Of a stretch of DNA of 64,000 bases, positions 7,706 to 47,955 are shown in pieces. The position numbers and the translations under genes were made by a program. The stretch's first letter is position 1; each line of letters starts with the position of its first letter. The DNA lies in the NCBI GenBank assembly GCA_963681965.1, contig OY820579.1:96001-160000 (forward strand). The letters are read 5' to 3'. The DNA comes from a bacterium (GTDB taxonomy: Bacteria; Electryoneota; JAOADG01). The notes beneath the pieces are model-generated. The model saw only the letters and a program-made list of their open reading frames with translations. It was not told the DNA's origin and searched no databases.

Positions 7706-7753
7706 CTCGCGTATACGAGCCAAATTACGAATAATCGGCAACATATAATCTAC

Positions 7754-7963: not shown

Positions 7964-8024
7964 CCTAATGATTTAGTCGGTTTTCGATTCAAATTGATTC
8001 TTGTTGTATGTGATGGAGGATTCT

Positions 8025-33000: not shown

Positions 33001-36000
33001 CAACAATCCGGCGCCAACAGTTACAACAGATTCTTGAATTTGAAGATCGGTAATGCCCGGTACGGTGTGTTTATCAATGCGAACGGTACTTACCACGACA
33101 TCGGTACCGAGATTGGATCGAATCCGACCGACTTGACTGCCTCGACCCGCTTCACGATCGGATTCAATGGACAGGATGACATCGGTGGTGCCGGCGCGAC
33201 CTACGGTATTTACGCTACCAGTCAAGAAGCGATTCGGATTCACGATTGCGATGTTCAAAATATGTTCACTTCGGTTAGTACCAGCAGCATATACGCAGTC
33301 TATTTGAATTCGACTTACGGAGTCAGTGAAATTAGTGGTACCCGGATTGGCAATCTGCGCAATACTTCCACCGACGTCGCAGCCACCGGCAATATCAACG
33401 GTATCAATGCATCCATCGTTTCCGGTACACATGAACTGCGCGTCTTCAATAACTTCATCTCTGGATTCACCCATCCACGTACCACCGAATCGGCGACACT
33501 ATATCTTTATGGTGCAATTTTCTCTACCGGAACCATTTATTGCGATAACAATACGATCGTGATGAACCCCAACACGGTCGGATCGTCGAATGCGAACATT
33601 TCCGCGACCAGCGCGGTGCTAACTGCCCGCAATAATATTTTATACAACAGCACCGGCGTTCAAAGTACCGCGAAACACTACGGTTTCTATTGTCCCACCG
33701 GTACGTCTCTCGCGGCGAATTACAATGTGTTCCAGTTGTTGAATACCGGCGCAGTTTTCGGTTATCTCGGCACTTCGAGTTACACGACGCTTGCGACCTG
33801 GCGCACTGGCAGCGGTTCCGATAACAATAGTGTTGCCAGCGATCCATATTTGACCGATATCGTTAATCGGAATTTGCATATTCAAGTAGGTCTCGAGACT
33901 CCGGTTAGTAACGCCGGAACTCAGATCACGTGGATTACCAAGGATATTGACAGCGAGACTCGAAGCAATCCTCCAGATATCGGTGCCGATGAAGGTTACT
34001 TTGGATTCATCGTGATCAATCCCAATCCGGCGTCAAATGCATCGAATGTACCGACGAATACTAATTTGAGCTGGAGTGCTTCACCGTATGCGACAGGTTA
34101 CGATGTGTATTTCGGACCGTCTTCACCGCCATCGTTGGTTTCTTCCAATCAGACAGGTACGACATACACTCCATCGAGCAGTCTAGTTCGCAACTCTCCG
34201 TATTTTTGGAAAGTAATTCCGCGAAATGGCGCAACAGTTGGAACCGGTTTAGTATGGTCGTTTACGACTGGTGCCGGTGCGGCGCCGAATGGACCGATCA
34301 GTCCAACGATTACTGGAGTCACCGGTAGTTCGCAAGTCATCAATTGGGTTGATAATTCCAATGATGAAACGGGATTCTTAATTCAGAGTTCGACCGATGG
34401 TTCATCGTTCACGAATTTAATTTCGGTTACGGCTGGCACCACCAGTTGGTCACATAATGTGATTCCGTCGAATACGCATTACTGGTACCGCGTTTACGCT
34501 TACAATGCCAGCGGTAATTCAGTATCGTATGCCGAAGTGAATTCGTGGACATTGGCGAATGTTCCTCAATCACCAACGATTGGAACGATCGGCTCAACGT
34601 TCGTTCAATTAACTCCGCGTAACGGCACGACCACCAACCCGGCTATTACGACCTATGCGATCTTCGAAAGCCGCACCGGTCTTTATGTGCAAGCTGACGG
34701 TACGATGGGCACTTCGGTTGTCTGGCGTACCCTGACCGATTGGGCGACGATAACAGTCAACGGATTAACTGCCAGTGCGCCGCATGGATTCTCGACCAAA
34801 GCGCGAAATGGTGGCAATGTCGAAACGGCTTTATCAACCGCCTCGACACTTACAACTGCGAGTGTATCAGAGTCGTTCGCCGGAACAAGCTTCCCGCCAC
34901 TCGGCTGGTCGATTACGAATAGCGATGGCAGCATTACCTGGTCGCGATTCACTGGAACCAATTCCGGTAACGGAACTGCTACTGTCAACTTCCCGGCATA
35001 CTATCCCGGTACCGATCAGCAGGATGTTCTTTGGTCACCGGCTTTTTCAACATTGAATGTCGGCGATGCATCGGTTTCATTCCAATGGTGGTATCAGAGC
35101 GGATATTCCGGTAATGACGGGTTGGAAGTTCTGTTATCGACCGATAGTGGAGCCACATCGACTTCGCTGTGGTTACGTCGCGGTGTAACGACCACGCCGA
35201 ATTTGGGTACCGGTACTACTGGCACGTTGAATTATCCCGCAGCATCCGATTGGTCAGCGGCATCGATCTCGTTACCAATTTCGATGCTGAACCAATCATC
35301 GTTAAGGATCGGCTTCCGGTCGTACAATCAATACGGACCGGCAGTGTTCCTTGACAACGTCAATATTTCCACGACTCAAATTCCGCGGTATGCGTTTTCA
35401 CCGACTACATTCGACTTCGGTGAATCGCCGGTTCATTCGAATACGCAGAGCAACGTTTGGGTTGTGAATCGCGGTACTGAAGCGGTACAGATCACTTCGG
35501 CGGCAATTACCGGTCCGAAATTCGCGACGGCATTTTCATTGCCGATGACGATTCCAGTGTCCGATAGTATACCACTCACACTAACATTCAATCCCGATAC
35601 AACGATTACATTCCGTGATACTTTGCGGATTCAATTATCGACTGGCGCGCAACTGACATTACCCGTCAGCGGATTGGGATTCGGCAACTACATTTCATTG
35701 TCGCGCACATCAGTTTCCTTCCCAAATGTCATTGAACCGACCCGGAGCGATTCAATCACGGTGTATGTTCGCGTGCAAGGAAATGCCTCACTCGAAGATG
35801 CGTATTTCACTACGTTATCCGGTCCGTTCAGTGGTGGTCCAAATCCGTGGGTAAGTGTGCAACCGGGCGATTCCGGCGCTGTCAAGCTGTATTTCCAACC
35901 GATGACGCAAGGAGTTTTCTCGGGATCGATCGCATTTGTTTGCAGTGCGATCAATACCGATACAATTCGGATCACACTATCCGGAACTGCGGCATTTGTG

Positions 36001-36357
36001 CCTGCAGCACCAGGTGGATTGACAATTACACGCGCCAGTGAAAATGCACTACTCAATTGGGCGCGGGTCGATACGTCGCTCAACGGCGTGCCATTGACGG
36101 TAGGACGGTATCTGATTTACTACCGCGACAATGGTACCGGACCGTGGTACTTCTTAACATTCACGGAAGGGGCGAGTACAACATCGTATACTCACGTCGG
36201 CGTATTTACTTATAGTCCGGCGATGTATTATCGGATTAAAGCTTGGATCGGTACCGGTTCGAGCGATAGTATCATCGACGACACCCCGTCCGGAACTCCG
36301 GAGGCGGTGATGATGAAGCGTTTGGACAATGATTTGATTCAGACGATGAAGCGGTAG
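24058..36357 (+). CDS. giant secreted/surface protein (4099 aa) with six ~498-aa putative beta-helix repeats plus FN3- and Ig-like domains
   Basis: Signal peptide. Repeats start PLTGxKTIGGTSPDY at 25060, 26557, 28042, 29536, 31030 and 32530 and end PDIGxxEG. FN3-like WVDNSNDETGF...YWYRVYAYN segment and C-terminal Ig-like modules. Confidence 0.88.
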   Translation: MYNLCRKSASLVLLFVVFSVFAIQAFATEISSRASKQNANTQFPVTIGSNNEIDVAVGIGSGVYVSRYPITEYYWFTRNQSLYTAAEIGRAGMISHLRWYPTTARSWANTGGSNQVKIYIGTTSSSSLTSQTYSTSGLTLVYQNNSYTGVSVANAWQEFDITDYYYNGTENLIVVTEINLANWSSPSTGEDYRNSGTSGIYLNQHWERDNTPPVVSGTLDTLRPNLQIEFSTSAPALPILVSPANNATNIAVTTAVNWTNGANTANVDLFFSNNQALVSAMDTTVRVLSASTATTFDPTGDLNAGVTYYWRVLARNAGGETTAGTIWQFTTASPPLTGTKTVGGTSPDYPTFTDAINALIAYGVGSSGITFSVRPGTYNERIVIPQITGASTTSHIIFQKESGTVTVAMAGTSGSSDAIVKLNAADYIELRGIDVLDLGTDDTNYNEYGFYVTNSTATNGANGNIIANSTITMHRANVNSRAIFQNYSITPTAQTGANSDNKYLDLKISNTAYGIFINSHSTYRDLNTEIGSTSSDLAYANRTVIGNGGIDDIGSINTTYGIYIGYAQRTLIHDCDIQNLFTSSPGTSVYGVTMMNTYGISELYNNRIFNLRNTSGSISATGYMYGVYANASSGAGNEIRVYNNYISGFSNPRTSEVTTVYLYGIYSSQSSGLCYIDHNAILMNPSTVGASTTCLQVSNTSYVRNNILANTTPNQFTAKHYIILTITNNPVSNYNSYYLPNLYGGYFGISASTDRLGIDDWRAYTSQDNQSTEGNPRFVDGSSGNLHIQAGVKTAINNTGTPIAWVTTDINGIIRNTGTPDIGPNEGIFVSTTPLMGTKTVGGTSADYATLVDAVEALAKYGIGTNGVTFSVRPGTYNGPITIPYLPDASDRTPANFIKESGTVTVTATGTSGNYDAILRLQGCDWVTFDGIDFVDGGSSSADYCEFGVWVGGTSGTNGATNNTIKNSTITMHRANSNANCVYQYSYNQPVTYAGTNNYNHYLNLKLSNARNGIYVFGNSSNYDYGTEIGSTSTDPSFASRFTVGSGGVDDIGTSGYHCYGIFAYYQDGIRIHDCDVSNVTASASGYNVYGIAISYTSGTCYLNGNRIYNLRQTYPSSATTGNIYGILLSNFAEMRVTNNMISGLSHARTTEVGSFYIYGIYQSSGTTIYVDNNSFLLNPTNGNVTNACLFLTSGTQYVRNNIFVNRTPNQTTSKHYAIYMNGGTLTSNYNLFQIPNQTNGIVGYNSSDYATLDAWQQNTGRDYNSLQGEPRFRDEANNNLRITPNVYTPINNSGTPVATVLTDAFGTTRNATTPDIGAEEGNFVAATPLTGIKTIGGTTPDYPTFTAALSDLQLLGVGTGGVIFLVRPGVYTEQLVVLPINNTSSTNPVIFQRDTGPVTLTCTGTVASNDYIVKLMGCRWVTFDGINVTDAGTSTSNYVEYGYYVTNLSGASGAQNNTIKNATIILNRVNTGSIGVMQDYSLTPVAQTGANNSNHYLNLKISNVRYGIYLRGSSNYRDQSVEIGSTSTMIGDTTRLTIGSGGVDDLSGSGSIYGIYMTYQEAVRVHDCDISNLTTTSTSSGVFGIYTSYLYGVNEISANRIYNLKNGSGDISASGSLYGAFLYAVTGTGNEIRFYNNTISGFTHSRTTEVNTIYTSGVYASNGFCYIDNNSIAITPSMISNSSTGIYIVGATTTIRNNIITNVTGTQTTAKHYGIVYNSGSFSNSNNNLFHIPNVRNGFIGYYTADQLTLDSWQGATGYDYTSKIGNPLFLNESANDLRILPGTASPVNNSGTPIVWITRDLENTTRHVTTPDIGAQEGNFISSAPLTGTKTIGGTSPDYATFTDALTALQLYGVGSGGVTFSVRPGVYSEQLVVLPISGTSMSNPVIFQRESDAVTVSVAGTSLTTDAAIKLFGCDWVTFDGINVQDAGTSSDNYLEYGYQVMNQTGANGATNNTIKNARIAMNRIYTGSYGVYQNLYVTPSQQSGANSSNHYLNLKITNCRTGMYFTGNGSYHDQFNEIGSTTSVLADTNRMVIGCYGPDDIGSATSSYGMYLINQDAIRVHDADICNVGSTSVSGASYGIMTSSLYGTSEIFNNRIYNIRNASGDANASGGVYGAVLNASTTGTNELRFYNNTISGINHPRTTETTSIYMMGIYATSGVCNVYNNSVLVNPTTIGCSNTVVYVNGATLTLMNNILMNRTANQSTAKHYIIYYSGGTLSNSNYNLIYYPNVTNGSMGYYTSEFSTLDAWQQYYGYDPQSRQGNPFFANEVNNDLRIVSGAASPVNNNGYTTAWITRDIEGTLRNATNPDIGAHEGNFTSSAPLTGIKTIGGTSPDYASFTDALNALQIFGVGTGGVTFNARPGTYAEQLTVLPITGASTSNPVIFRRESDPVTIAVVGGSGTTDAAVKLNGCDWVTFDGINVTDLGTSSSNYLEYGYYIVNFAGANGATNNTIKNATIVLNRTNTSSSAIYQNVVLSPTSTNGTNSYNKYLNLKISNTRWGISLFGHSTYRDIGCEIGSISGSLTDLNRLSIGFGGSDDIGSTSQTYGMYISAQEGIRIHDCDIGNLVSSSTSSSVIGVYMTNCYGVNEISGSRIYNLKLSGVDANSTGSLIGIYVNNNTTAGIEVRCFNNMISNFSHPRTVELATMYVYGICVNSGTCYIDNNNIVMNGLLAGVSNANIYESSSNASISLRNNILINRTAAQTTSKHYLIYRGSATLNASNNNLLYILNSSNGFVGYYSSDLSTWDNWYSNTSFDNNSIVGNPFLMDETNNDLRVTVGTATPINNAGTPIAWITRDLEGNLRNVSTPDIGAQEGNFISSNPLTGIKTIGGVSPDYATFNDATTALQLYGVGSGGVTFLVRPGTYQEAITVLPIYNTSTTNPVIFRKQSNTVIVAPVGTSGNDAAIKLVGCNWVTFDGIDVSDSLNTSLTNIDFAYQLTNYTGRIGATNNTIQNSIITLNRTVSTSRGIYQMLSYTPLQQSGANSYNRFLNLKIGNARYGVFINANGTYHDIGTEIGSNPTDLTASTRFTIGFNGQDDIGGAGATYGIYATSQEAIRIHDCDVQNMFTSVSTSSIYAVYLNSTYGVSEISGTRIGNLRNTSTDVAATGNINGINASIVSGTHELRVFNNFISGFTHPRTTESATLYLYGAIFSTGTIYCDNNTIVMNPNTVGSSNANISATSAVLTARNNILYNSTGVQSTAKHYGFYCPTGTSLAANYNVFQLLNTGAVFGYLGTSSYTTLATWRTGSGSDNNSVASDPYLTDIVNRNLHIQVGLETPVSNAGTQITWITKDIDSETRSNPPDIGADEGYFGFIVINPNPASNASNVPTNTNLSWSASPYATGYDVYFGPSSPPSLVSSNQTGTTYTPSSSLVRNSPYFWKVIPRNGATVGTGLVWSFTTGAGAAPNGPISPTITGVTGSSQVINWVDNSNDETGFLIQSSTDGSSFTNLISVTAGTTSWSHNVIPSNTHYWYRVYAYNASGNSVSYAEVNSWTLANVPQSPTIGTIGSTFVQLTPRNGTTTNPAITTYAIFESRTGLYVQADGTMGTSVVWRTLTDWATITVNGLTASAPHGFSTKARNGGNVETALSTASTLTTASVSESFAGTSFPPLGWSITNSDGSITWSRFTGTNSGNGTATVNFPAYYPGTDQQDVLWSPAFSTLNVGDASVSFQWWYQSGYSGNDGLEVLLSTDSGATSTSLWLRRGVTTTPNLGTGTTGTLNYPAASDWSAASISLPISMLNQSSLRIGFRSYNQYGPAVFLDNVNISTTQIPRYAFSPTTFDFGESPVHSNTQSNVWVVNRGTEAVQITSAAITGPKFATAFSLPMTIPVSDSIPLTLTFNPDTTITFRDTLRIQLSTGAQLTLPVSGLGFGNYISLSRTSVSFPNVIEPTRSDSITVYVRVQGNASLEDAYFTTLSGPFSGGPNPWVSVQPGDSGAVKLYFQPMTQGVFSGSIAFVCSAINTDTIRITLSGTAAFVPAAPGGLTITRASENALLNWARVDTSLNGVPLTVGRYLIYYRDNGTGPWYFLTFTEGASTTSYTHVGVFTYSPAMYYRIKAWIGTGSSDSIIDDTPSGTPEAVMMKRLDNDLIQTMKR

Positions 36358-36548: not shown

Positions 36549-36797
36549 CTAATGCGAAAGACATTTCGGACACCGGATATGCTCGGTGCGAAATATTTCT
36601 ACCGTACCGACTCCATGACAAGCATAACAGGTTTTTTCCAATGCATCGTTGCCACTACCATGACAAAAAGTGCACTGCACCTTCACTTCACACAATCGAT
36701 CAATCCAACCAGTATCATTGCAATTGGGACACTGTCGATCCGAAATTTGCGAATTCTTTTGGGAAGATATTTTAGTATTATCGAACTGCTGCGACAT
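36549..36797 (-). CDS. small DnaJ-type Cys-rich zinc-finger protein (82 aa)
   Basis: CPNCNDTG, CTFCHGSG, CYACHGVG and CPKC. ATG 36797 overlaps the 3' end of the protease gene. Confidence 0.75.
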   Translation of the reverse strand: MSQQFDNTKISSQKNSQISDRQCPNCNDTGWIDRLCEVKVQCTFCHGSGNDALEKTCYACHGVGTVEIFRTEHIRCPKCLSH

Positions 36798-37254
36798 CTT
36801 TATCAATCCACTCTTCAATTAACTGAACTGCAACAGGAAGCGCATTTCGAACCGATTCCGAAATACCCTCCGATAGGGTTACCAAGTCTTCCGCCTCGAC
36901 CGTCAGAATGTCGACAGTGGTCGGCATGGTGTAACCGAGATTCTCACCCAATCGTAATGCAACTGGCAGATTGATCTGGTGATTCGACATTAATCTTACC
37001 GTTGGAATTGGATCACTAGCGGACAATATTCGAATTGTACCCGGTGTATCTCGCTGCGTCTGAATGGTATCGACAATCAGGACCCGATCGCGACCATTCA
37101 ACAGATCGAGTAACGCGAATCCGGCGATCGCAGCCGCGGTTACGTCCGCGATCGCCGATACCTCCCCCTTTTCCCGCAAGAGATCTGCAATTTTAAAACC
37201 GAAACCGTCGTCACTGATGATCTCATTTCCCAAACAGAGAATTAACGGTTTCAA
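36778..37254 (-). CDS. [NiFe]-hydrogenase maturation endopeptidase
   Basis: LCLGNEIISDDGFG, LIVD and SNHQINL motifs. The TTG start at 37254 overlaps the mvhA stop and has GGAGGA upstream. Confidence 0.9.
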   Translation of the reverse strand: MKPLILCLGNEIISDDGFGFKIADLLREKGEVSAIADVTAAAIAGFALLDLLNGRDRVLIVDTIQTQRDTPGTIRILSASDPIPTVRLMSNHQINLPVALRLGENLGYTMPTTVDILTVEAEDLVTLSEGISESVRNALPVAVQLIEEWIDKDVAAVR

Positions 37255-38735
37255 CAATTCCTCCGGGTACTTCCGACAATCTCGCCAGTCTCGGCATCGT
37301 GAATAACAATTTCCAATGGGAGCGATCCATTCAGCGAATGCGTCGCGCAACCAAAGCAGGGATCATAGGCGCGAAACGCCATTTCGATTCGATTCAGCAT
37401 CCCGTCGGTGATCTCTGTTCCCTTTTTGATCAACCCTTCCGCAGCTTTCTTAATCGACATTGTGATCGGCGCGTTGTTGTTGGTCGTACCGACAATGAGA
37501 TTCGCTTCCGTCACGATTCCGTTTTGATCGGTCTTGTAATGATGGGTCAATATTCCGCGCGGTGCTTCGACAATTCCGACTCCCTCTCCCACGATACCCG
37601 TTGGAATCGTTTGAATTTCATCGGAAGTAATTTCTTCGTCTTGTGCTCCAGCGAGGGTCGCTTCACAGGCATACACCATCTCGACAACACGTGCCCAGTG
37701 CGTTGCCAAGGTCTGTTGTACCATGGTTTTACCGCTGCGATCGCCAGTGAGGGTATCGTAAAAACGCTCGTACTCTGCTTGCGCCAGCGGTGTCGCCATG
37801 CCATCGGAGACATTCAATCGCGACAGCGGCGATGCTTTGTATACCCCGGACGTAACACCGTCGACAAAGCCATTCCAACCGACTTTCTTGAGGTAGGGAT
37901 ACTTCAAATAGCTGTAAGTTTCAACATGCTCAGCGATATGTTCGAGATAGTCTTTCGGTTGATATCGACAGAATTCCTTTCCGTCGGGATCGACTACGCG
38001 AACCGTGCCATCGTAAAAATTCACTTTATTGTGTTCATCGACCAGACCAATATTATAGGTCTTGTGGGTGTAAGCATCGGAAAGAATCATATCGACATAC
38101 GCTTGATTCGCAAGCACAATATCGTCGAACACTTTGATCGTGAATTTCGCAAACTCCACCATCGCTTTGCCAATTTCGATCAACTCCTCACGCTCGGCTT
38201 TCGAAACACGTTTGGCGTTGCCTCCGGGAATGGCTGTTACAGGATGGACTTTCTTTCCACCGATGATCTCGATCACACGCTGACTGCGAGCACGATGAGC
38301 AATGACTTTCTTTCCGGCTTCGATACCGACTTTTGCAATGACTCCCAAAATATTACGTTCGGCAGCAGGGGCATCCGGTCCGACGACAAAATCGGGACCG
38401 CCGAGAGCGTAGAAATGGGTCGCATGATCCCCGGCATAAAAACCGTTATACATCAGCGAACGCAATTTGAATGCCGCTGGCGGGATCGTCACGCCATACA
38501 CGGCATCGGTCGCTTTTGCCGCAGCCAAGTGGTGCGCGTCAGGACAGACACCGCAAATCCGGGTGGTGATCCGTGCCAGTTCTTCAACTGGACGACCTTG
38601 ACAGAATTTTTCAAACCCGCGTAGTTCCGGAATTTGGAAGTAGCAATTTGCAATGGATCCATCGTCGTTGACGAAGAGTTGAATTTTACCATGACCCTCG
38701 AGTCGAGTGATTGGATCAATCGTAATCGATTTCAT
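37251..38735 (-). CDS. mvhA: group 3c [NiFe]-hydrogenase large subunit
   Basis: ITRLEGHG, L1 RICGVCPDAH, VEAPRG and L2 RAYDPCFGCATH followed by a cleavable tail. Adjacent to mvhG, mvhD and hdr genes. Confidence 0.92.
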   Translation of the reverse strand: MKSITIDPITRLEGHGKIQLFVNDDGSIANCYFQIPELRGFEKFCQGRPVEELARITTRICGVCPDAHHLAAAKATDAVYGVTIPPAAFKLRSLMYNGFYAGDHATHFYALGGPDFVVGPDAPAAERNILGVIAKVGIEAGKKVIAHRARSQRVIEIIGGKKVHPVTAIPGGNAKRVSKAEREELIEIGKAMVEFAKFTIKVFDDIVLANQAYVDMILSDAYTHKTYNIGLVDEHNKVNFYDGTVRVVDPDGKEFCRYQPKDYLEHIAEHVETYSYLKYPYLKKVGWNGFVDGVTSGVYKASPLSRLNVSDGMATPLAQAEYERFYDTLTGDRSGKTMVQQTLATHWARVVEMVYACEATLAGAQDEEITSDEIQTIPTGIVGEGVGIVEAPRGILTHHYKTDQNGIVTEANLIVGTTNNNAPITMSIKKAAEGLIKKGTEITDGMLNRIEMAFRAYDPCFGCATHSLNGSLPLEIVIHDAETGEIVGSTRRNC

Positions 38736-39703
38736 AATTGTACCCTCCTCAACAAAGAATCCGGCAAGGAAAATCGGTAGAAGGTACCCAACGGATCTGG
38801 TAGTGTTTGGATAATTCGATCGATTTCAGCCGGATCGGAAGAATCGATCACGCTGGCAAGCGCCGAAGCCATTTTCGCACCTTGATCGCGAACATTGAGT
38901 GGCGCTCCATAACAGCCACGACAAGGCATTCCGGCACTAACACATTTAGCACCACACCCACCACGCGTGGCAGGACCATTGCAAACGATACCCTGCTCCA
39001 TCAAACAAATTTCGGGGTCGGTTTTGATCGCAAACGGTCGAACGAACGATTTCACTTTTTTGACATCGCGTTTTCGATCGCACTCATCGCAACAAGTCTT
39101 GTCCGTCGCACCTAAGATCGAACCATGCGGAGGAAGCGGTTTTCCGTTACTGAGTATATCGATTACCGCCCCCACAACAGCGGCAATTTGATCGGATTGC
39201 GGTGGACAACCGGGAATGATATAGTCGACATCGACACATTGACAGAGCGTACGCACGGTATTCCAGAGTTGGGGAATTTTTAAATCGCCCTCGGGTACTG
39301 TGGTAAGCGGTCGTGGTCGAATTCCATTGGGATTGACGGTCGATGGCGAATCGGAATAGGCATACTGCATGATCGATTCCAGATCGTAGAAATTAGCCAA
39401 ACCGGGAATACATCCTTCCGATGCACAACTTCCGAAGGCAACCAGTACGACTGATTTTTTCCGGAGGAGGTCGGCAATATGGAGATTTTCATCGCTCCGG
39501 ATTGCGCCATTAAATAACGTCAAAGTGATCGATTTATCGGGCATTGCTTCGACATCGGCATATTTAAAATCAGTGGCACAGGGCCAGAGGCAGATATCGA
39601 AAAAATCCGCGACAGCCAGAATTTTTTCTTCGATATCGAGAATGGCGATATCGCAACCGCCGCAGGAAGCCGCCCAATAGATCGCTAGTTTAGGTTTATC
39701 CAT
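38732..39703 (-). CDS. mvhG: group 3c [NiFe]-hydrogenase small subunit
   Basis: ASCGGC, GSCASEG, PGCPP, CDEC, CNGPATRGGCGAKC and PCRGC. No Tat leader. Confidence 0.92.
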   Translation of the reverse strand: MDKPKLAIYWAASCGGCDIAILDIEEKILAVADFFDICLWPCATDFKYADVEAMPDKSITLTLFNGAIRSDENLHIADLLRKKSVVLVAFGSCASEGCIPGLANFYDLESIMQYAYSDSPSTVNPNGIRPRPLTTVPEGDLKIPQLWNTVRTLCQCVDVDYIIPGCPPQSDQIAAVVGAVIDILSNGKPLPPHGSILGATDKTCCDECDRKRDVKKVKSFVRPFAIKTDPEICLMEQGIVCNGPATRGGCGAKCVSAGMPCRGCYGAPLNVRDQGAKMASALASVIDSSDPAEIDRIIQTLPDPLGTFYRFSLPDSLLRRVQL

Positions 39704-39716
39704 GTTCAGGATCCTC

Positions 39717-40193
39717 TTATTGTTCGATTGCGATTGATTGCGTTGTCTCGTGGTGTATTTTCCTTAGATCGTCCGGATTGAAATGGACTTCTTTCAAAAC
39801 TAGCGGTCCGAGTGCTCTAATCTGATTAGTAAATTCGGAGATCACTTCCTGAAAACGGGCACCTTCGGAAGCCGAAACCCATTCCAATCTCAGCCGTGTC
39901 GGATCGATTCCCATTCCGGCAATAATCGTTTTAGTAAAGGGAATCCGTCGGAGACATTTGTAATTGCCTTCGACATAGTGACAATCTCCGGGGTGGCAAC
40001 CGCACACCAACACTCCATCGGCACCGCACCGGAAGGCATCGAGGATAAATCCCGGATCGACGCGACCACTGCACATTACCCGGATTCCTACCACATTGGG
40101 TGGGTACTTCATGCGCGCAGTTCCGGCGAGATCCGCTCCGGTATAACTGCACCAATTACAGAGAAAACCGACAATTCTAGGTTCGAAGATCAT
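39717..40193 (-). CDS. mvhD: MvhD [2Fe-2S] subunit
   Basis: FLCNWCSYTGADLAG, IRVMCSGRVDP, GCHPGDCHY and LEWVSASEG. ATG 40193 overlaps the upstream stop (ATGA). Confidence 0.95.
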   Translation of the reverse strand: MIFEPRIVGFLCNWCSYTGADLAGTARMKYPPNVVGIRVMCSGRVDPGFILDAFRCGADGVLVCGCHPGDCHYVEGNYKCLRRIPFTKTIIAGMGIDPTRLRLEWVSASEGARFQEVISEFTNQIRALGPLVLKEVHFNPDDLRKIHHETTQSIAIEQ

Positions 40194-41947
40194 GCGAATA
40201 TCCCCTCGATTTGTGCGTAAATCTGTTGATCGGTGAAATGCCGAGCCTTGATTGCACCTGCGGGACAAGCGGCAACACAAGTACCGCACGACTTGCACAA
40301 AGCAGAATTGACCCGACTGATTTTCAAATCGGGGAAGAACTCGATGGCTGAATAGGGACAGAGATCGTTACAATAACGACAACCACCGCAATTTTCTTCC
40401 ACTACTTCGGCAAATGCCGCATCCATCATGATCTCACCCTGACACATCAGTTTCATCACCTGAGCTGCGGCTGCACCGCCTTGTGCGACAGTGTCGGGAA
40501 TGTCTTTTGGTCCTTGACAAACTCCGGCAAGAAATACACCGTCGGTCGTTGTCGATACCGGTGCAAGTTTCGGATGCGCTTCGATGAACCAGCCATCGGC
40601 ACCAGTCGAAATATTGAATTTGCGACCGGTAGCATAGGCATCTTTACGCGCTTCGAGTGCAGTACAGAGAATGACCATATCGACGGGAATTTCGCGGTAC
40701 TTTCCGAGCAAAGTATCTTCGCAATGAACGATGAGCGGTCCGGAACTATCGGCACGATAGTCCGCCATTGTAACTTCTGCCGCCTTGCCACGGATTACCG
40801 TAACGTTCTCCTCCAGAATTCGTTGATAGAATTCCTCGTAGCCCTTTCCGAAACTCCGGATGTCGATATAGAGTTGATAAACCTCCGCGTTGGTTTTTTC
40901 TTTTACCAAGTGCGAGAATTTGAAAGCATACATACAACAAACCCGGCTACAGTAGCGATGATGCTTCTCGTCGCGACTTCCGATACAATGCAGGATGGCA
41001 ATCGATTGCGGTTCGCGACCATTTTCCATCAGTACTTTTCCACCCGTCGGACCAGCGGCATTGTTCATCAACTCGAATTCTTCGGCACTGATGACATTCG
41101 GTAACTTTCCGTAACCATACTGTTTCATCACAGTCGGATCGAAGCTATCGAAACCGGTAGCAACGACGATAGCACCGACATCGATCGACTCGACTGTTTC
41201 TTTCGCCTCATAATCGATGCATTCCTTGGGACAGACTTGGGCACAGATTCCACAGCCGTCGGTATTGAAATGGATGCAATTATCTTTGACGATGATCGGC
41301 ACATTCGGTACCGCTTGTCGGAATGGAAGTGTAATGGCGGTATTGGGACCGAGAAATAAATCGCGGTGCACCACTTCCTTATGATCCATTTCTTCCAACA
41401 CGATATGACCGGTGGGACAAACCGTGGCACAAGCTCCGCAAAGGATACAATCGTTACTCGTCTCGCCGAACGGCGTTGTGACCGAGCGCCAGATACCGCG
41501 ATCACCGAATGCCAGCGCGTGTGCGCCAACCACTTCATCGCAAACCCGGACGCACAAACCACAAAGAATACAGGTATCGGTTCCATAACCCCATCGCGGT
41601 TCGGTTATTCCCACTTTCGCAGCTAAATCGGTAAGCACTGGAACTGGAGCGCAACGGCTCATCAGCATTTCGAGATTAATGCGGCGACTATTGATCACCC
41701 GAGGTGAATCGGTCGTGATTTCAAGACCTTCCCATGCAGGATAATTGCAGGAAGTAACAATTTTTGTCCACCCTTTTCCATCACCGGCTTCAACAGCACA
41801 AATTCGACATGCGGCATATGGTGTCATATAGGGGTAGTAGCAGAGGGTCGGGATATCGATGTTGAGCTGTCGCGCAGCTTCCAACACAAACGATCCATCT
41901 TCCACTTCGATCGGTTTTCCGTCGATGGTAATATGCACTTTACTCAT
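40190..41947 (-). CDS. fusion of an N-terminal NuoG/HoxU/BamI-like Fe-S domain with the C-terminal part of HdrA
   Basis: N-terminal ~185 aa: IPTLCY, ACRICAVE, SC ([2Fe-2S]), CILCGLCVRVC and CILCGACATVCP. Remainder: PFRQAVPN, VGAIVVATG, GPTGG, HCIGSRD, YCSRVCCMYAFK, HPKLAPV, GVFLAGVCQGPKDIPDTV and two C-terminal ferredoxin motifs. Confidence 0.9.
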   Translation of the reverse strand: MSKVHITIDGKPIEVEDGSFVLEAARQLNIDIPTLCYYPYMTPYAACRICAVEAGDGKGWTKIVTSCNYPAWEGLEITTDSPRVINSRRINLEMLMSRCAPVPVLTDLAAKVGITEPRWGYGTDTCILCGLCVRVCDEVVGAHALAFGDRGIWRSVTTPFGETSNDCILCGACATVCPTGHIVLEEMDHKEVVHRDLFLGPNTAITLPFRQAVPNVPIIVKDNCIHFNTDGCGICAQVCPKECIDYEAKETVESIDVGAIVVATGFDSFDPTVMKQYGYGKLPNVISAEEFELMNNAAGPTGGKVLMENGREPQSIAILHCIGSRDEKHHRYCSRVCCMYAFKFSHLVKEKTNAEVYQLYIDIRSFGKGYEEFYQRILEENVTVIRGKAAEVTMADYRADSSGPLIVHCEDTLLGKYREIPVDMVILCTALEARKDAYATGRKFNISTGADGWFIEAHPKLAPVSTTTDGVFLAGVCQGPKDIPDTVAQGGAAAAQVMKLMCQGEIMMDAAFAEVVEENCGGCRYCNDLCPYSAIEFFPDLKISRVNSALCKSCGTCVAACPAGAIKARHFTDQQIYAQIEGIFA

Positions 41948-43977
41948 TTTACCACCTCCTCAGCGATCTTAGGTGCCGGTTTCGGTTTCGGAACAAGTGG
42001 TTTGAATAGCTCGCGGGCACGCTGCTGAACTATATCGCCTTCTCCGCGTTTCACGCGCTTAATGCTGTTAAATTTGCAAACTTGATAACAACCACCGCAC
42101 TGTTCGCATAAATCTTGAACGATCGAATGCAGTTCTTTCGTGTTACCCAGAATTGCATTCGTCGGACAGGCTTTCACACAAACATGACAGCCGGTACAGG
42201 TTTCATTGATGGCATGCGCGACAAGTTTCTTGCAGACACCAGCCGGACAACGTTTATCGCGGATATGCGCGACATATTCCTGCCGGAAGTAGCGGATGGT
42301 TGAAAGCACCGGATTCGGGGCGCTTCCACCTAATTGACACAACGACGTATCGATGATAACCTGCGACAGACGCTCGAGTTCGTCAATATCGCTCATCTCT
42401 CCTTCCCCTTCGGAGATCCGATTGAGGATATTGAGCATTGTTCGCAGCCCTTCCCGACATGGCAGGCATTTTCCGCAACTCTCTTCCTGCAAGAAATTGA
42501 GGAAGTAGCGGGCAACATCGACCATGCAAGAATCTTCGTCCATCACGATCATACCGCCCGAACCCATCATCGATCCAACTTTGGTCAATTCGTCGAAATC
42601 GACGGGAAGATCGAGCAAACTTTCGGCGGCTTCCTCCATGACATCGTCGCCATACGCTTCCATACTTTCGCGAATCTTTTTCTCGGCAGTTTCTACTACC
42701 AGGGTACCACCCGACGGACCACCGGTTTGCACGGCTTTGAATTTCTTTTTACCCAGCACACCACCACCGATATCGTATAAAATCTCGCGTAATGTGATGC
42801 CCATGGGGACTTCTACCAAACCGGTATTGTTCACCTTGCCGGTAAGTGCAAAAACTTTCGTTCCTTTCGAACCTTCAGTGCCGATTTTCGCGTATTCCGA
42901 AGCACCGAGTTCGATGATAATCGGAACATTCGCCCAAGTTTCGACGTTGTTCAAACAAGAGGGTTTATTCCAGAGACCGAATTCAACGGTGTGGATATAC
43001 TTGGCGCGCGGTTCACCCACTTTTCCTTCGAGTGATGCCATAAGTGCGGTTGATTCGCCGCAGACAAACGCGCCACCACCACGCGATACTTCAATATCGA
43101 AACTGAAATCCGACCCGAGAATATTTTTACCCAGCAATCCGTGCGCGCGAGCAGCCGCCAGCGCGATATTCAGATTCGTCACCGCCAACGGGTATTCATT
43201 GCGAACATACACATACCCTTGGATACTTCCGATCGCATACGCTCCGATGATCATTCCTTCGACTACAGAGTGCGGATTCCCTTCCAACAGCGATCGATCC
43301 ATAAAAGCACCGGGATCGCCTTCGTCGGCGTTGCAGATAACATATTTCGGTTCACCTTTGGCGCGACGACAGGTATTCCACTTTTTGGCAGTGAGAAAAC
43401 CACCACCACCGCGACCGCGAAGTCCGGAGATCTTGATTTGTTCGATCACTTCCGGCGGTTGAAAGTCGGTAAGCACTTTCGCCAGTGACTGATATCCACC
43501 CAAAGCGATATAATCTTGAATCGAGGTGGGATCCATTCGACCGTTTTTACCGAAAATCAGTCGCTTCTGTTTTTTATAGAAGGGGATATCGTATTCGTGC
43601 TCGATAACTTTCTTTGTGATTGGATCGTGATACAGCAGTTTACTGACTGTCTTCTCGCCCATCAGTGTTTGTTCGACAATCAATTTGACATCTTCCGGCT
43701 TCACTTTTTGGTAAAATAGACCCAACGGGTGGACAACCATTAGTGGACCACGCTCGCAAAAGCCGTGACAACCGGTTGTTTTCAACTCTACGACTTTATC
43801 CAACCCGGTGTCCGCCAGTTCTTTCCGCAACGCATTGACCACTTTTTGACAACCACAGGCAAGGCAACCGGTACCAGCACAAACCGAAATCATGGTCTTT
43901 CTGCTCTCGCGTATTTTTGCTTCCCGATCGCGCATTTCACATAATTCTTTAGGAGAATTCAAACGCAGGTCACTCAT
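41944..43977 (-). CDS. NuoF/HydB-like NADH- and FMN-binding subunit with N-terminal [2Fe-2S] and C-terminal 2x[4Fe-4S] domains
   Basis: CAGTGC...GCHGFC, GLRGRGGGGF, CNADEGDPGAFMDR, AFVCGE, GGPSGG, ESCGKCLPCREG, HIRDKRCPAGVC, CTGCHVCVKACP and CEQCGGCYQVC. Confidence 0.93.
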   Translation of the reverse strand: MSDLRLNSPKELCEMRDREAKIRESRKTMISVCAGTGCLACGCQKVVNALRKELADTGLDKVVELKTTGCHGFCERGPLMVVHPLGLFYQKVKPEDVKLIVEQTLMGEKTVSKLLYHDPITKKVIEHEYDIPFYKKQKRLIFGKNGRMDPTSIQDYIALGGYQSLAKVLTDFQPPEVIEQIKISGLRGRGGGGFLTAKKWNTCRRAKGEPKYVICNADEGDPGAFMDRSLLEGNPHSVVEGMIIGAYAIGSIQGYVYVRNEYPLAVTNLNIALAAARAHGLLGKNILGSDFSFDIEVSRGGGAFVCGESTALMASLEGKVGEPRAKYIHTVEFGLWNKPSCLNNVETWANVPIIIELGASEYAKIGTEGSKGTKVFALTGKVNNTGLVEVPMGITLREILYDIGGGVLGKKKFKAVQTGGPSGGTLVVETAEKKIRESMEAYGDDVMEEAAESLLDLPVDFDELTKVGSMMGSGGMIVMDEDSCMVDVARYFLNFLQEESCGKCLPCREGLRTMLNILNRISEGEGEMSDIDELERLSQVIIDTSLCQLGGSAPNPVLSTIRYFRQEYVAHIRDKRCPAGVCKKLVAHAINETCTGCHVCVKACPTNAILGNTKELHSIVQDLCEQCGGCYQVCKFNSIKRVKRGEGDIVQQRARELFKPLVPKPKPAPKIAEEVVK

Positions 43978-44495
43978 ATTTCTTCCTCCTCCTCGTCAAC
44001 TCCCCTTTCCGTTCCTCCTTTTAAATCCGACAACATGCGATCGACCTTGGTAGTGGTCATATTTCCGTAATACTCGCCGTTCGCCGTGATTAGCGGTCCA
44101 AGCGCACAGGCACCGAGACAGTTGACAGTTTCAAAGCTGAATTCAAGATCTTTGGAGGTTTCGCCCGGTTGGATGTGTAGTGCCGATTCCAATTTATCGA
44201 GAATCACGCGAGCACCGCGAACGTGACACGCAGTACCGGTACAAACACAAATGTGATTCTTTCCTTTCGGCTTCAATGAAAATGTCCGATAGAATGTAGC
44301 GACGCCATAGATCTGAGCAATCGGCAGATTCATTTTTTCTGCTACCAGTTGCAACGCTTCCTTCGGTAGATACCGAAAGTGCTTCTGAATATCCTGCATG
44401 ATCATGATCAGCGCTGTCGGTTTGGCTTCGTAGCTTAGTACGATCGATTTAATTTCCTGTTCCAAATCGAATTTGTTATCAAGTGATGGCATCAT
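43974..44495 (-). CDS. NuoE/HydC-like [2Fe-2S] subunit
   Basis: YGVATFY, VCTGTACHVRGA and NCLGACALGP. Confidence 0.93.
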   Translation of the reverse strand: MMPSLDNKFDLEQEIKSIVLSYEAKPTALIMIMQDIQKHFRYLPKEALQLVAEKMNLPIAQIYGVATFYRTFSLKPKGKNHICVCTGTACHVRGARVILDKLESALHIQPGETSKDLEFSFETVNCLGACALGPLITANGEYYGNMTTTKVDRMLSDLKGGTERGVDEEEEEI

Positions 44496-45466
44496 CGGCT
44501 ACCTCCCTGTGGTATCTGCGATGCTTCCGGCATCGGTTGTGCTCCAGTCAACGTGGTTAAATCGGTATCGGGACCGATTCGATCGCGATGGCGAATCTCC
44601 AGCGCCTTTCCTTCTTTAAAGACTTTTCCACCCATGATCAATCGACGCATCTTCGGTAACGGTCGACTGGGGCACGCTTCATAGCAGGATCCGCAACTAT
44701 TGCACTTTTCAGTATCGACGTACCGGGCTTTTTTGCGAACTTTGATTTCAAAATTTCCGATGTATCCTTTTACTTCATCGACTTCGGACCAAGTCATTAA
44801 TTTGATGCGAGGATGTTTTCCCACTGCGACCATTTTCGGAGTAAGAATACAAGCAGCACAATCGAGTGTCGGAAAAGTCTTATCGAATTGCGACATATGT
44901 CCACCGATCGATGGCTCCCGTTCGACCAGCACAACATCAAATCCGGCATCAGCGATCTGTAGCGACGCTTCAATTCCAGCAATACCGCCACCTACCACCA
45001 TGACACGCTTGGTGATTGCCACCCGGCGCATTTCCAATTCTTCATGGTATTTCACACGCGCGATCGCGGCTTTAATGATTGCATAGGCTTTTTCGGTCGC
45101 GGCAACAGGATCGATCGTCACCCAACTCACCTGTTCGCGAATATTCGCCATCTCGAACAAGTAGCGATTCATCCCGGCAGCTTCGACCGCTTTTCGGAAA
45201 GTCGATTCGTGCATCAGCGGGCTACAGGCAGCGACCACTACGCGGTTCAATTTGTATTCGCGGATATCGGCTTGAATCAATTCCTGCCCCGGATCGGAGC
45301 ACATGAATCGGTAGTGGCGGGCAACAGCGACACTCGGCAGATGCGAACAGCGTTCGGCGATGGCGGCTACATCGACATTTTTCGCGATGTTTGTTCCGCA
45401 ATGGCAGACATATACTCCCACTCGAATCAACGAAGCACCATTTCCATTCGAATGAATATCACTCAT
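44492..45466 (-). CDS. hdrA: heterodisulfide reductase subunit A, N-terminal part only
   Basis: GVYVCHCGTNI, MCSDPGQ, AACSP, ANIREQ, GGGIAG, DKTFPTLDCAACIL and KKARYVDTEKCNSCGSCYEACP, followed by a ~55-aa non-HdrA tail. Confidence 0.9.
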   Translation of the reverse strand: MSDIHSNGNGASLIRVGVYVCHCGTNIAKNVDVAAIAERCSHLPSVAVARHYRFMCSDPGQELIQADIREYKLNRVVVAACSPLMHESTFRKAVEAAGMNRYLFEMANIREQVSWVTIDPVAATEKAYAIIKAAIARVKYHEELEMRRVAITKRVMVVGGGIAGIEASLQIADAGFDVVLVEREPSIGGHMSQFDKTFPTLDCAACILTPKMVAVGKHPRIKLMTWSEVDEVKGYIGNFEIKVRKKARYVDTEKCNSCGSCYEACPSRPLPKMRRLIMGGKVFKEGKALEIRHRDRIGPDTDLTTLTGAQPMPEASQIPQGGSR

Positions 45467-46341
45467 AGCGTACTCGCTTTCTCGAATGGAGTTCGGTATG
45501 TTAGCGGTACAATCATTTTGTTGAGATCCAAATCATCGTCGGAGATACCGAGTGCCATTCCCAACAACTGGCTGAAATAGAGGATGGGAATCGAGTAATT
45601 CGTTTTGTAAGCAGCATTAATTTGCGGTTGATAGGCTTCCAAGTTCATTTCGCAAAGCGGGCATGCTGTAGAAATCACATTCGCATCGTTCTCGATCGCA
45701 GCTTCGATCAGATCCACGCAAAGCTTCAAAGCGATGGTTTCGTCGGTCATCATCAGCATACCGCCGCAGCATTTGACTTTCATCGGATAGTATGTCACTT
45801 CGGCACCAAGCGCGGTTAACAATCGATCCATCGACTGTGGATCATCGACATCGTCGAAATAGCCATTCGGACGAACAATCTGACAGCCGTAGTATGGGGC
45901 GACTTTCAAACCGGTAAGCGGATGCTTCACTCGTTTCTTGATCTCATCGATCCCAACATCGTTGACCAGAATATCGAGCGGGTGTCTCACTAGTGTTTGT
46001 CCATCGTAGTGCAGATTTGCCGCCGATAGCGCTTCGTTGATATGATCGCGCGATGGTGGATCGTTATTGATCTGATGATTGGTTTTGCGTAAAATCGTGT
46101 AGCAACTGCTGCAAGGTGCACAGACATCGAGATGTTCTCGTGCTGCAATAGCAAGATTTCGTGCGCTCAATGCATAGCTGACAATTTTTTTGCTCGACAT
46201 ATACATCGTAGCACCGCAACAGTTCCAATCCTGGATCTCGACTAATTCAACATCCAACGCTTTGAACACTGCTCGGATCGACCGATCATACGGTTTTCCG
46301 GTATATTCCAGACTGCATCCGGGATAATAGGCGTATCGCAT
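45463..46341 (-). CDS. hdrB: heterodisulfide reductase subunit B
   Basis: YYPGCSL, DWNCCG, PCSSC, YYGCQ, CCGG and ACPLC (two CCG domains). Confidence 0.95.
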   Translation of the reverse strand: MRYAYYPGCSLEYTGKPYDRSIRAVFKALDVELVEIQDWNCCGATMYMSSKKIVSYALSARNLAIAAREHLDVCAPCSSCYTILRKTNHQINNDPPSRDHINEALSAANLHYDGQTLVRHPLDILVNDVGIDEIKKRVKHPLTGLKVAPYYGCQIVRPNGYFDDVDDPQSMDRLLTALGAEVTYYPMKVKCCGGMLMMTDETIALKLCVDLIEAAIENDANVISTACPLCEMNLEAYQPQINAAYKTNYSIPILYFSQLLGMALGISDDDLDLNKMIVPLTYRTPFEKASTL

Positions 46342-46916
46342 CAGGAATCTCCTGTCTTCTCTGCACGATCGATGATCGCACGTACATCGTCGATTTGTTT
46401 CACCGGTTTCGGTACAATACCCAACCGACCGCGACTCATCATCTTTAAACCAAATCCAGTGCTTTTGACGAGTTGCATTGGGTTCGCACGCAAGTAGTAA
46501 CGGATTCCCAATCCCATTTCATAATTGCGACCGTACCGTTTCACGTTATCCGTAAAACTCTTTGCGAGCACATTCACCGGAAAATCTTTCGGAAAGATTT
46601 CATGCTCCATCGCCAAGCGTTTTAACGCATATAGCGTATCAGTGACTCTGATACCGACTGGACAACGCACCGTGCAAGCATAACAGGATGCACAAATCCA
46701 GATTGCCCGGCTATGGAGAATTTCTTCGAGCATCCCTGCTCGAAACAACGCCACGATGTCGCGCGGTGTTCGGTCCATCGCATACGACACGGGACAACTA
46801 CCCGTACAGGTTCCACATTGAAGGCAATTCTTGATTTTATGACCTTCGGGAAAACTGTTGACGTGTTGCCAGAATGCCGTACGCAAAGCAGCTTCTTTGG
46901 TAGAAATTGAATCCAT
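46341..46916 (-). CDS. hdrC: heterodisulfide reductase subunit C
   Basis: CLQCGTCTGSCP and WICASCYACTVRCP. Start at ATG 46916 with GGGAG upstream. Confidence 0.93.
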   Translation of the reverse strand: MDSISTKEAALRTAFWQHVNSFPEGHKIKNCLQCGTCTGSCPVSYAMDRTPRDIVALFRAGMLEEILHSRAIWICASCYACTVRCPVGIRVTDTLYALKRLAMEHEIFPKDFPVNVLAKSFTDNVKRYGRNYEMGLGIRYYLRANPMQLVKSTGFGLKMMSRGRLGIVPKPVKQIDDVRAIIDRAEKTGDS

Positions 46917-47218
46917 TACTACTCCCACTTGAGTGAAGGAGAATCGTTCAAGCTTTTTCGGAATCCGAAAAGACGCTAAAACTCGAAATAATGAAACATT
47001 CGGAATGGTGTAAAAAAGTATTTAAGACCAATGGTTCGACAGGTATCGCGATAATAATTTGCGGTTTGATCGAATCGACATAGTCAATTCTCATTACCTG
47101 CGAAATAAGTGAGATCAATAGGTGTGATGGACATTTTGTCCGATTTGCGCGAGCGAGTGAGAAAATTGGGGACGCAACCCGGCAAAATGTTAGTTAGTGT
47201 TCCAATACTCGGATCGAA

Positions 47219-47477: not shown

Positions 47478-47955
47478 AATATTCCTATTTACAGTATATT
47501 CAACAAGATAGGCATAATTTTATAATTTATGGCGGGTTACTTGCAAGAAATTGACTCGGACTCTCTCTGCGAGGTTTGATTTAAATCATCATTTGATCCA
47601 TTCACTCGAAGAATCGCTTTTTATTGTCAATTCTTGTCAAGCATTTTGGAAAATACTTCCCGGTTCAGGTGTTGATATCATCAGCCAATTACTCAAACTA
47701 TCCCTAAAAATCGTCATCGTATTATAAGTTATAAAAATACAATTACAGTTAATTGTAATATATTCGCATATCGATACACTTAGCGATTGCGAACAGGTGG
47801 TTTCAAAAAAACAGAAAAAATCGGTTTCGAATGTAATCGTATTGCTAGTTTTTTCGATTCGGGGTATCTTCGCAGTGTCGAACCATTTTCTCCCTTTTAT
47901 ACTTTTGAATTCTAGTTGTTCGTCACTGATTCATACTCGCCTACGGGAGGACATC

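Follow-up and report, generated by a model that had tools for sequence, protein, structure and literature searches.

A bacterial Mvh-Hdr operon in which HdrA is split around, and fused to, a Bfu-type NAD(H)/ferredoxin module

Four families of enzymes are known to bifurcate electrons; the HdrA-type and Bfu-type enzymes are two of them and employ different chemistry. In the solved Mvh-Hdr complexes of methanogens, electrons enter HdrA from MvhD by way of a C-terminal ferredoxin domain. HdrA's inserted ferredoxin domain forms the low-potential branch leading away from the flavin adenine dinucleotide (FAD) in these complexes (PMC13518236 and PMC9012536, each in part). Bfu cores exchange electrons with nicotinamide adenine dinucleotide, NAD(H), and with ferredoxin, while those of a third substrate arrive through the subunit BfuA; additional N-terminal [2Fe-2S] and C-terminal 2x[4Fe-4S] clusters define the core (PMC9304861, in part). 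Here we describe an operon of ten genes in a 64,000-nucleotide stretch of bacterial DNA (GTDB lineage Bacteria; Electryoneota; JAOADG01; GenBank assembly GCA_963681965.1, contig OY820579.1, positions 96,001 to 160,000 of the forward strand; hereafter the window, whose own numbering is used) that brings the two families together. The gene for HdrA is cut between the two cysteine motifs of its inserted ferredoxin domain into two complementary pieces, HdrA(N) and HdrA(C), and a complete HydBC/Bfu-type NAD(H)/ferredoxin module sits in the gap, covalently joined to HdrA(C).

The MvhAGD-HdrABC complex of hydrogenotrophic methanogens (5ODC, 8RVU and 9SW2; group 3c) provides the best solved matches, and all six of its subunit types are present here: HdrB has two CCG domains and HdrC two [4Fe-4S] motifs, MvhG and MvhD are encoded together with MvhA, and the L1 and L2 motifs are kept. 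In contrast to the methanogen enzyme, in which a single-chain HdrA delivers to free ferredoxin or polyferredoxin, HdrA is here composed of two open reading frames (ORFs) cut within the inserted ferredoxin domain, with a three-protein NAD(H)/ferredoxin module between them and fused to HdrA(C), and the host is a bacterium without coenzyme M/coenzyme B metabolism. Similarly, members of the Bfu family, such as Wor-Bfu of Acetomicrobium mobile (9MQX) and NiFe-HydABCSL (7T2R), share with the locus a BfuB with all of the extra Fe-S domains, a BfuC and a short BfuA-like domain, but BfuA here is neither a free subunit nor joined to a catalytic domain. Its fusion partner is one half of a different bifurcating flavoprotein, and the side of the third substrate is a whole Mvh-Hdr complex. 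In NiFe-HydABCSL the hydrogenase is joined directly to BfuA with no Hdr, whereas the present operon includes MvhD, the two-piece HdrA and HdrBC.

Two further systems combine related parts. Of the enzymes described, the class II benzoyl-CoA reductase BamBCDEFGHI (Bam-Bfu; Geobacter, Desulfosarcina) alone unites a module of HdrA type with a subunit resembling MvhD and with a BfuABC module, BamGHI (PMC9304861, in part). The operon described here differs from Bam-Bfu in having a [NiFe] hydrogenase instead of tungsten BamBC, an HdrA that is split and fused to BfuA, and true HdrBC; no match to tungsten BamB (AOR family) was found by Pfam among the ten operon proteins. In HdrL, and in the HdrA of ANME-1 archaea, it is likewise the inserted ferredoxin domain that is interrupted, by an NfnB (GltD)-like module that binds NAD(P)H (for ANME-1, legend of S8 Fig in PMC9012536). 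There the insertion is one in-frame domain of a single polypeptide, while here three genes of the unrelated NuoEFG/Bfu lineage occupy the site and the host gene is physically split. Pfam found no Fer4_20 or GltD-type domain in the window proteins, in contrast to a locus with a closely related HdrA (L071), which encodes a 1136-amino-acid (aa) HdrL-type protein carrying Fer4_20 and Pyr_redox_2 (GltD-like) domains between the HdrA halves. The HdrL of this type and the ANME-1 insertion thus mark the inserted ferredoxin domain as a recurrent insertion port for NAD(P)H modules.

The ten genes of the operon are co-directional on the minus strand, from 46928 to 36778 (ORF listing and Pfam), and read in the direction of transcription as follows.

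hdrC, 46341-46928 (minus strand), 195 aa: 2x[4Fe-4S] ferredoxin-type subunit; Pfam Fer4_8/Fer4_17; tblastn homologues lie 5' of hdrB in related loci
hdrB, 45463-46341 (minus strand), 292 aa: disulfide-reducing subunit; Pfam CCG, E 1.7e-27, in two stretches; both CCG motifs present in the translation
hdrA(N), 44492-45466 (minus strand), 324 aa: Fe-S domain at the N-terminus, the FAD domain's first half and, shortly before the stop, the inserted ferredoxin domain's first Cys motif (CxxCxxCxxxCP); Pfam shows an FAD/Rossmann start and a single 4Fe-4S motif
bfuC (nuoE-like), 43974-44495 (minus strand), 173 aa: thioredoxin-like [2Fe-2S] subunit; Pfam PF01257 (2Fe-2S_thioredx), E 6.6e-51
bfuB (nuoF- or hydB-like), 41944-43977 (minus strand), 677 aa: assigned by Pfam and solved-structure matches
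fusion gene, bfuA-like::hdrA(C), 40190-41947 (minus strand), 585 aa: Fer2_4 and 4Fe-4S dicluster domains, then the C-terminal part of HdrA, with two more ferredoxin motifs at its end
bfuA-like part of the fusion, 41363-41947 (minus strand), about aa 1-195: [2Fe-2S] and 2x[4Fe-4S] ferredoxin domain; Pfam Fer2_4, Fer4_7
hdrA(C) part of the fusion, 40190-41362 (minus strand), about aa 196-585: linker, the inserted ferredoxin domain's second Cys motif, the FAD domain's second half and a ferredoxin domain at the C-terminus
mvhD, 39717-40193 (minus strand), 158 aa: [2Fe-2S] adaptor between hydrogenase and HdrA; Pfam FlpD, E 4.3e-53
mvhG, 38732-39703 (minus strand), 323 aa: [NiFe]-hydrogenase small subunit; Pfam Oxidored_q6; syntenic in related loci
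mvhA, 37251-38735 (minus strand), 494 aa: group 3c-type [NiFe]-hydrogenase large subunit
protease gene, 36778-37254 (minus strand), 158 aa from a TTG overlapping the mvhA stop: HycI-type hydrogenase maturation endopeptidase; Pfam HycI, E 1.9e-12

The resulting order, hdrC-hdrB-hdrA(N)-bfuC(nuoE)-bfuB(nuoF)-[bfuA-like::hdrA(C)]-mvhD-mvhG-mvhA-protease, is the one given by the original prediction, which a model had made from the letters of the window. Its count of eight overlapping junctions out of nine is likewise borne out by the sequence: there are one TGATG, six ATGA (that between bfuC and bfuB included) and one TTGA, with a single 13-nucleotide spacer from mvhD to mvhG, and a purine-rich stretch precedes each junction. 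For hdrC we used the GTG at 46928 (195 aa) instead of the previously proposed ATG at 46916, while the starts of mvhD and the protease gene were chosen at the overlap, longer ORFs from upstream GTG or TTG codons also being present.

Alignment with the solved HdrA chain 5ODC_A locates the cut. Residues 15-267 of HdrA(N) align with residues 5-258 of 5ODC_A (E 4.9e-97), and residues 166-584 of the fusion protein with residues 245-650 (E 9.7e-106), so that HdrA(N) alone lacks half of the FAD domain. HdrA(N) stops shortly past its CxxCxxCxxxCP motif (about C254/255 to P265/266), whose counterpart in the 5ODC_A alignment is the inserted ferredoxin domain's first Cys motif; across 19 aligned sequences it is a separate ORF of 281-329 aa in which this motif is invariant. 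The fusion protein begins with the Bfu-derived part, residues 4-195 aligning with residues 5-197 of the BfuA-like chain 9mqx_A of Wor-Bfu (E 1.6e-34), and proceeds from a [2Fe-2S] site (C36, C47, C50, C67) through a complete 2x[4Fe-4S] ferredoxin domain (cysteines 126, 129, 132, 136 and 167, 170, 173, 177) and a linker homologous to the inter-motif linker of HdrA to the second Cys motif of the inserted ferredoxin domain (C224/C232/C235/C239), after which the remainder of HdrA follows. All of these fusion-protein cysteines are invariant in 13 fusion proteins, and no His-ligated cluster motif was found in the bfuA-like part. The EFE and CCMYAFK residues that had been noted in HdrA(C) are present in the translation, at fusion residues 290-292 and 337-343. 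In our reading, two chains together reconstitute the inserted ferredoxin domain, which adjoins the ferredoxin domain of the BfuA-like part.

The predicted complex of HdrA(N) with the fusion protein is consistent with such a reconstitution. Scores of 0.81, 0.81 and 0.80 were obtained in three runs, against 0.01 for the best control, with at least 92% of contacts agreeing between runs and a partner pLDDT (predicted local distance difference test) of at least 82; the mark applied is reached by 58 of 80 solved complexes and by 2 of 110 mismatched pairs. Residues 254-291 of HdrA(N) contact residues 125-176 and 181-266 of the fusion protein, and the tightest pairs, such as that of residue 261 in the fusion protein with residue 157 in HdrA(N), complete the sheet of the FAD domain. 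The two halves therefore reassemble in models, a check that the original prediction had proposed, although the pass shows likeness to solved HdrA and is not proof of binding, since solved HdrA structures exist.

The module occupying the gap is of Bfu rather than complex I type. BfuB comprises an N-terminal thioredoxin-like [2Fe-2S] domain, a flavin mononucleotide (FMN)/NADH site (Complex1_51K), an SLBB domain, an N3-type [4Fe-4S] domain (NADH_4Fe-4S) and a C-terminal 2x[4Fe-4S] domain, its Pfam domains lying at residues 25-103, 181-352, 487-571 and 591-642. Its best solved matches are all of Bfu/HydB type (9mqx_B, E 2.4e-222; 7t2r_B, E 2.6e-220; 8a6t_B, E 4.5e-209), and matches to such chains as a group range from E 1e-182 to 2.4e-222, compared with E 1e-111 and weaker for complex I NuoF (2fug_1, E 9.4e-111). 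The alignment to 9mqx_B extends over residues 23-644 with Cys motifs matched. The suggestion of a HydBC-like NADH module is thereby made more specific, its NuoF-like subunit being of the HydB/BfuB type, while a BfuA-type Fe-S subunit occurs at the locus only as the domain fused to HdrA(C).

The hydrogenase subunits are those expected of a group 3c enzyme, as had been proposed. The best solved match of MvhA is 5odc_F (E 1.2e-113), followed by 9sw2_F and by the NiFe-Bfu large subunit 7t2r_D (E 3e-107). Both motifs reported for MvhA, ICGxCxxxH for L1 and AYDPCxxCATH for L2 (PMC6085437, in part), have counterparts in the 494-aa translation, L1 reading RICGVCPDAHH and L2 RAYDPCFGCATH.

Assembled contigs support the arrangement. 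Runs X1 and X3 come from two studies, and one of the two possibly represents the source sample. Their Logan contigs match the window without any difference over 37000-43324 and 43295-46950 and bridge 41300-41500 as well as both flanks of the insertion, at 41944-41947 and 44492-44495; the read support for the junctions that had been called for is thus provided at the level of contigs. The sole break in these contigs is a 30-base overlap at 43295-43324 in the region of nuoF encoding the FMN domain, where all Logan contigs break and the loose ends of other organisms branch. This is probably a conserved-sequence fork of the assembly graph, at a conserved 31-mer that other NuoF genes in the metagenomes also contain. 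From runs X4 and X5 there are just fragmentary contigs (95-100% identity), none of the contigs reaches across the entire stretch, and in X5 there are two joints that go back, with one contig each. None of the runs listed for the stretch is an RNA run.

The split-and-fused design is conserved across many phyla. In a protein search, 120 clusters among the matches listed (579-604 aa, 62-100% identity, 99-100% query coverage) all carry Fer2_4 (PF13510), i.e. the BfuA::HdrA(C) fusion, and named sources include KSB1, Eisenbacteria and Thermoanaerobaculaceae. In a survey of 80 loci, taking one genome per species and counting by tblastn with the ten window proteins, the BfuA-like part is directly joined to HdrA(C) in 32, of which 12 retain the full order hdrC-hdrB-hdrA(N)-nuoE-nuoF-fusion-mvhD-mvhG-mvhA and several others are cut by contig ends. 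Record titles of the fusion loci name Zixibacteria, GN15, Ignavibacteria, Calditrichaeota, Armatimonadetes, Acidobacteriota, Aminicenantes, Chloroflexia and Dehalococcoidia (Chloroflexota), Planctomycetaceae (Planctomycetota), Verrucomicrobiota, Desulfobacterales and one Thermoplasmata archaeon, and no cultured carrier occurs among the 32, all being titled as metagenome-assembled genomes (MAGs) or uncultured; ten proteins looked up by cluster likewise yielded no names. Within the phylum of the host, the full-length fusion is present in one open frame in 10 of 41 genomes, namely that of the window and 40 relatives. The architecture is consequently neither unique nor degenerating; that it might be both had been named in the original prediction as a ground for refutation.

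Variants of the locus offer additional insight into its function. HdrA(N) and BfuC are encoded as a single ORF in a Planctomycetaceae MAG (L023:1920-3596, 558 aa) and in a Thermoplasmata MAG (L032:244-1497, 417 aa); together with the BfuA::HdrA(C) fusion, this second Rosetta-stone link ties Hdr to Bfu on both sides. Cassettes in which a HydS-like protein is accompanied by HATPase and PHP proteins are a sensory type associated with HydABC operons. In ten loci (L012:2590-6330; L008, L010, L013-L017, L025 and L070) hdrA(N) and nuoE are separated by a cassette, about 3.2-4.0 kb long, with genes for a PHP phosphatase, for two HATPase proteins and for a HydS-like protein that has an [FeFe]-hydrogenase domain (Fe_hyd_lg_C) together with a putative Fe-S domain. 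No such cassette occurs at the window locus; its travelling with the insert in those ten loci suggests that the Bfu insert descended from a HydABC-type operon. Three delta-proteobacterial loci, from Desulfobacterales-type MAGs (L021, L022 and L024), have no mvhGA but retain mvhD, the fusion, nuoE, nuoF and a split HdrA, and so represent an Hdr-Bfu core free of hydrogenase; extra hdrA-like genes and hdrCB lie several kb downstream in them. In one further locus the fusion ORF runs on for 821 aa and mvhD was undetected (L003:9001-11466), and in another a second set of BfuA-like, nuoE and nuoF genes lies directly 3' of the fusion gene, with mvhDGA absent nearby (L018:8849-11940).

A tree of HdrA(C) was computed as a quick IQ-TREE run (LG+G4, with only Shimodaira-Hasegawa-like approximate likelihood-ratio support) on 84 rows, with architecture labels taken from tblastn heuristics and seven rows unlabelled. 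No single origin of the split is apparent in this tree: the Bfu-split rows need at least seven changes on well-supported branches and are interleaved with canonical and HdrL-type ones, a result to which we attach little weight. The window falls in a fully supported clade of ten rows, all of them Bfu-split.

The genome of the window (G000), a single contig of 4.24 Mb that is 99.9% complete, contains five [NiFe] large-subunit genes. Among its loci is a canonical hdrC-hdrB-hdrA-mvhD-mvhG-mvhA locus with an unsplit hdrA of 680 aa and without Bfu genes (G000:C1:4035214-4041914; L081, about 5214-11914), whose products are 41-62% identical to the window proteins. That the genome also encodes this unsplit paralogue suggests that the split locus has a function of its own and is not decaying. 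Three further NuoF paralogues are encoded, one of them beside a [NiFe] large subunit (about 1397-1400 kb), and no [FeFe] hydrogenase was found in the genome. The hydrogenase-linked NuoF paralogue (1396818-1398389 of the same contig, 51% identical) adjoins the large-subunit gene at 1399758 and has one in-frame TGA between two matched parts, which may represent selenocysteine, a frameshift or two genes.

From these features we derive a candidate mechanism. The ten genes would give rise to one cytoplasmic multi-subunit oxidoreductase, consisting of MvhAGD, HdrBC and an HdrA in two pieces, to which the BfuA-like domain fused to HdrA(C) would tether a BfuBC core. MvhA would oxidise H2 and pass electrons by way of MvhG and MvhD to the FAD of HdrA, where bifurcation would send one electron downhill through HdrC to HdrB, reducing a disulfide. 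The low-potential electron would leave by the two-chain inserted ferredoxin domain, not to free ferredoxin but into the clusters of the BfuA-like domain and on to the BfuBC core, which would trade electrons with NAD+ and ferredoxin. Two coupling devices would then operate in series and link four couples: H2/H+, disulfide/thiol (RSSR/RSH), NAD+/NADH and oxidised/reduced ferredoxin. The preferred direction would be that in which H2 drives the reduction of disulfide, NAD+ and ferredoxin, with the NAD+ step acting as a second downhill push that could, at low H2, lower the potential of the ferredoxin-bound electron below the one-stage value, while the unsplit Mvh-Hdr paralogue would run the ordinary ferredoxin-only reaction.

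We favour this series arrangement because the Bfu module is spliced in and fused at the low-potential exit of HdrA and because Bfu cores take the electrons of a third substrate through BfuA. We infer that one complex forms and that both bifurcation sites operate. Judged from sequence, the prospects that H2 drives the reaction, with the low-potential branch of HdrA feeding the Bfu core, appear evenly balanced, the physical wiring being likelier than the direction. The more specific proposal of a two-stage cascade, in which the low-potential HdrA electron, paid for by disulfide reduction, is bifurcated again at the flavin/Fe-S site of Bfu at the expense of NAD+ reduction, is a tentative one that we consider rather unlikely to hold.

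Several considerations weigh against the H2-driven series arrangement. The sequence puts no constraint on the direction of electron flow, and in the case of Bam-Bfu the opposite has been proposed, with Bfu donating electrons of about -400 mV to HdrA (Schut et al., PMC9304861, in part). The series reaction is strongly exergonic when H2 is the donor, and for each H2 it would on paper produce a smaller amount of reduced ferredoxin than the canonical enzyme does, so its advantage is confined to low H2 or to the service of a very low-potential acceptor. The mvhGA-less loci imply that hydrogen is no obligatory partner of the Hdr-Bfu core. Furthermore, no homologue of DsrC (PF04358) was found in the 99.9% complete genome, and DsrC is rejected as the disulfide partner there. 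Finally, the score of the complex model may be inflated by memory of solved HdrA structures.

The strongest rival reverses the wiring, as in Bam-Bfu: the Bfu core would confurcate electrons from NADH and reduced ferredoxin, and the resulting mid-potential electrons would enter HdrA and pass to a disulfide through HdrBC and/or to H2 through Mvh, making the enzyme an NADH/ferredoxin-dependent heterodisulfide reductase with a hydrogen valve. It agrees with the role proposed for BamGHI beside the HdrA-like BamE (Schut et al., PMC9304861, in part), with the loss of mvhGA in L021, L022 and L024, and with the position of the NiFe-Bfu hydrogenase 7t2r_D as the second-ranking structural family for MvhA. 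The insert also looks HydABC-derived, with HydS-like cassettes in ten loci, and BfuA in HydABC links the core to the site of the third substrate. Set against this, the Bfu module is attached at what is the low-potential output domain of all solved Hdr complexes and not at the input that MvhD forms with the ferredoxin domain at the C-terminus, and the genome already possesses a NuoF-linked [NiFe]-hydrogenase locus (about 1397-1400 kb); we regard reverse wiring as a serious contender that is nevertheless improbable.

In a simpler scheme, the NuoEF-like module would be a non-bifurcating diaphorase exchanging low-potential HdrA electrons with NAD(H), as HoxEFU does in group 3d hydrogenases, leaving a single bifurcation site in an H2:disulfide/NAD+ oxidoreductase. 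The set of NuoE, NuoF and NuoG N-terminal domains is indeed common to Hox diaphorases, and 5xf9_B and 5xf9_D are among the matches, but the NuoF-like subunit has the extra N-terminal [2Fe-2S] and C-terminal 2x[4Fe-4S] clusters that define a Bfu core (PMC9304861, in part) and its matches to Bfu/HydB chains are much stronger than those to NuoF of complex I, which makes the scheme quite unlikely. That two independent enzymes, Mvh-Hdr and a BfuABC-type complex, merely share an operon (which by itself is no proof of a complex), or that hdrA was broken by assembly artefact or decay, is highly improbable and contradicted by the gene fusions: without exception HdrA(C) is part of one polypeptide with the BfuA-like domain. 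In addition, half of the FAD domain is missing from HdrA(N) taken by itself, the Cys ligands are invariant and the split itself is conserved, the junctions are spanned without a difference by contigs of runs belonging to two studies, and with an intact paralogue elsewhere the split copy is under no pressure to stay open unless used.

The design is built from known Mvh-Hdr and Bfu parts, and their arrangement is apparently undescribed; it probably hard-wires two energy-coupling devices into one enzyme. The original prediction knew of no such arrangement, and a full-text literature search likewise turned up no account in which NuoEF/Bfu genes accompany a split HdrA; a prior listing is possible in Appel et al. 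2021 (BBA 1862:148379) and in supplements such as the clade tables of Schut 2022, which lay outside its scope. No description was found in the available portions of PMC9304861, PMC5736913, PMC6349859, PMC7886697, PMC10689502, PMC12142623, PMC9325076, PMC7325909, PMC6085437, PMC11697101 and bioRxiv 2024.09.26.615249, and neither Hdr-Bfu nor Mvh-Bfu, nor variants of these names, occur in the full-text literature searched.

Compared with the Bam complex, the split-HdrA/Bfu locus offers a cleaner system for understanding how two bifurcation sites cooperate: a gene fusion connects the two enzyme types at one definite place, where the low-potential branch leaves HdrA, near the simple substrate H2. 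Should the H2-driven arrangement operate as a cascade, trace H2 in sediments could still yield ferredoxin well below -500 mV, and the enzyme would be the first natural one with two mechanistically different bifurcation sites covalently wired in series. The design is common in uncultured anaerobes of many phyla, and its pieces are currently annotated either as '4Fe-4S dicluster domain-containing protein' or as 'heterodisulfide reductase subunit A'. The coupling of H2, NAD(H) and ferredoxin in the carrier organisms is therefore probably misinterpreted in metabolic reconstructions.

The operon is flanked upstream by an AT-richer spacer of 868 nucleotides and downstream by a convergent ORF of 4099 aa. 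A consensus scan was uninformative: it returned 24 sites resembling promoters, where 16.0 +/- 4.7 would be expected, and 10 resembling terminators, where the expectation is 11.9. The giant downstream ORF (24058-36357, plus strand) has as its sole Pfam match one HYDIN/VesB-like Ig domain near the C-terminus. Across the spacer, and divergent from the operon, lies the gene for a 1773-aa C25 (gingipain-type) peptidase (47797-53118, plus strand) with a propeptide, a CarboxypepD_reg domain and a C-terminal sorting domain of the type IX secretion system, which fits a bacterium of the Fibrobacterota-Chlorobiota-Bacteroidota (FCB) group.

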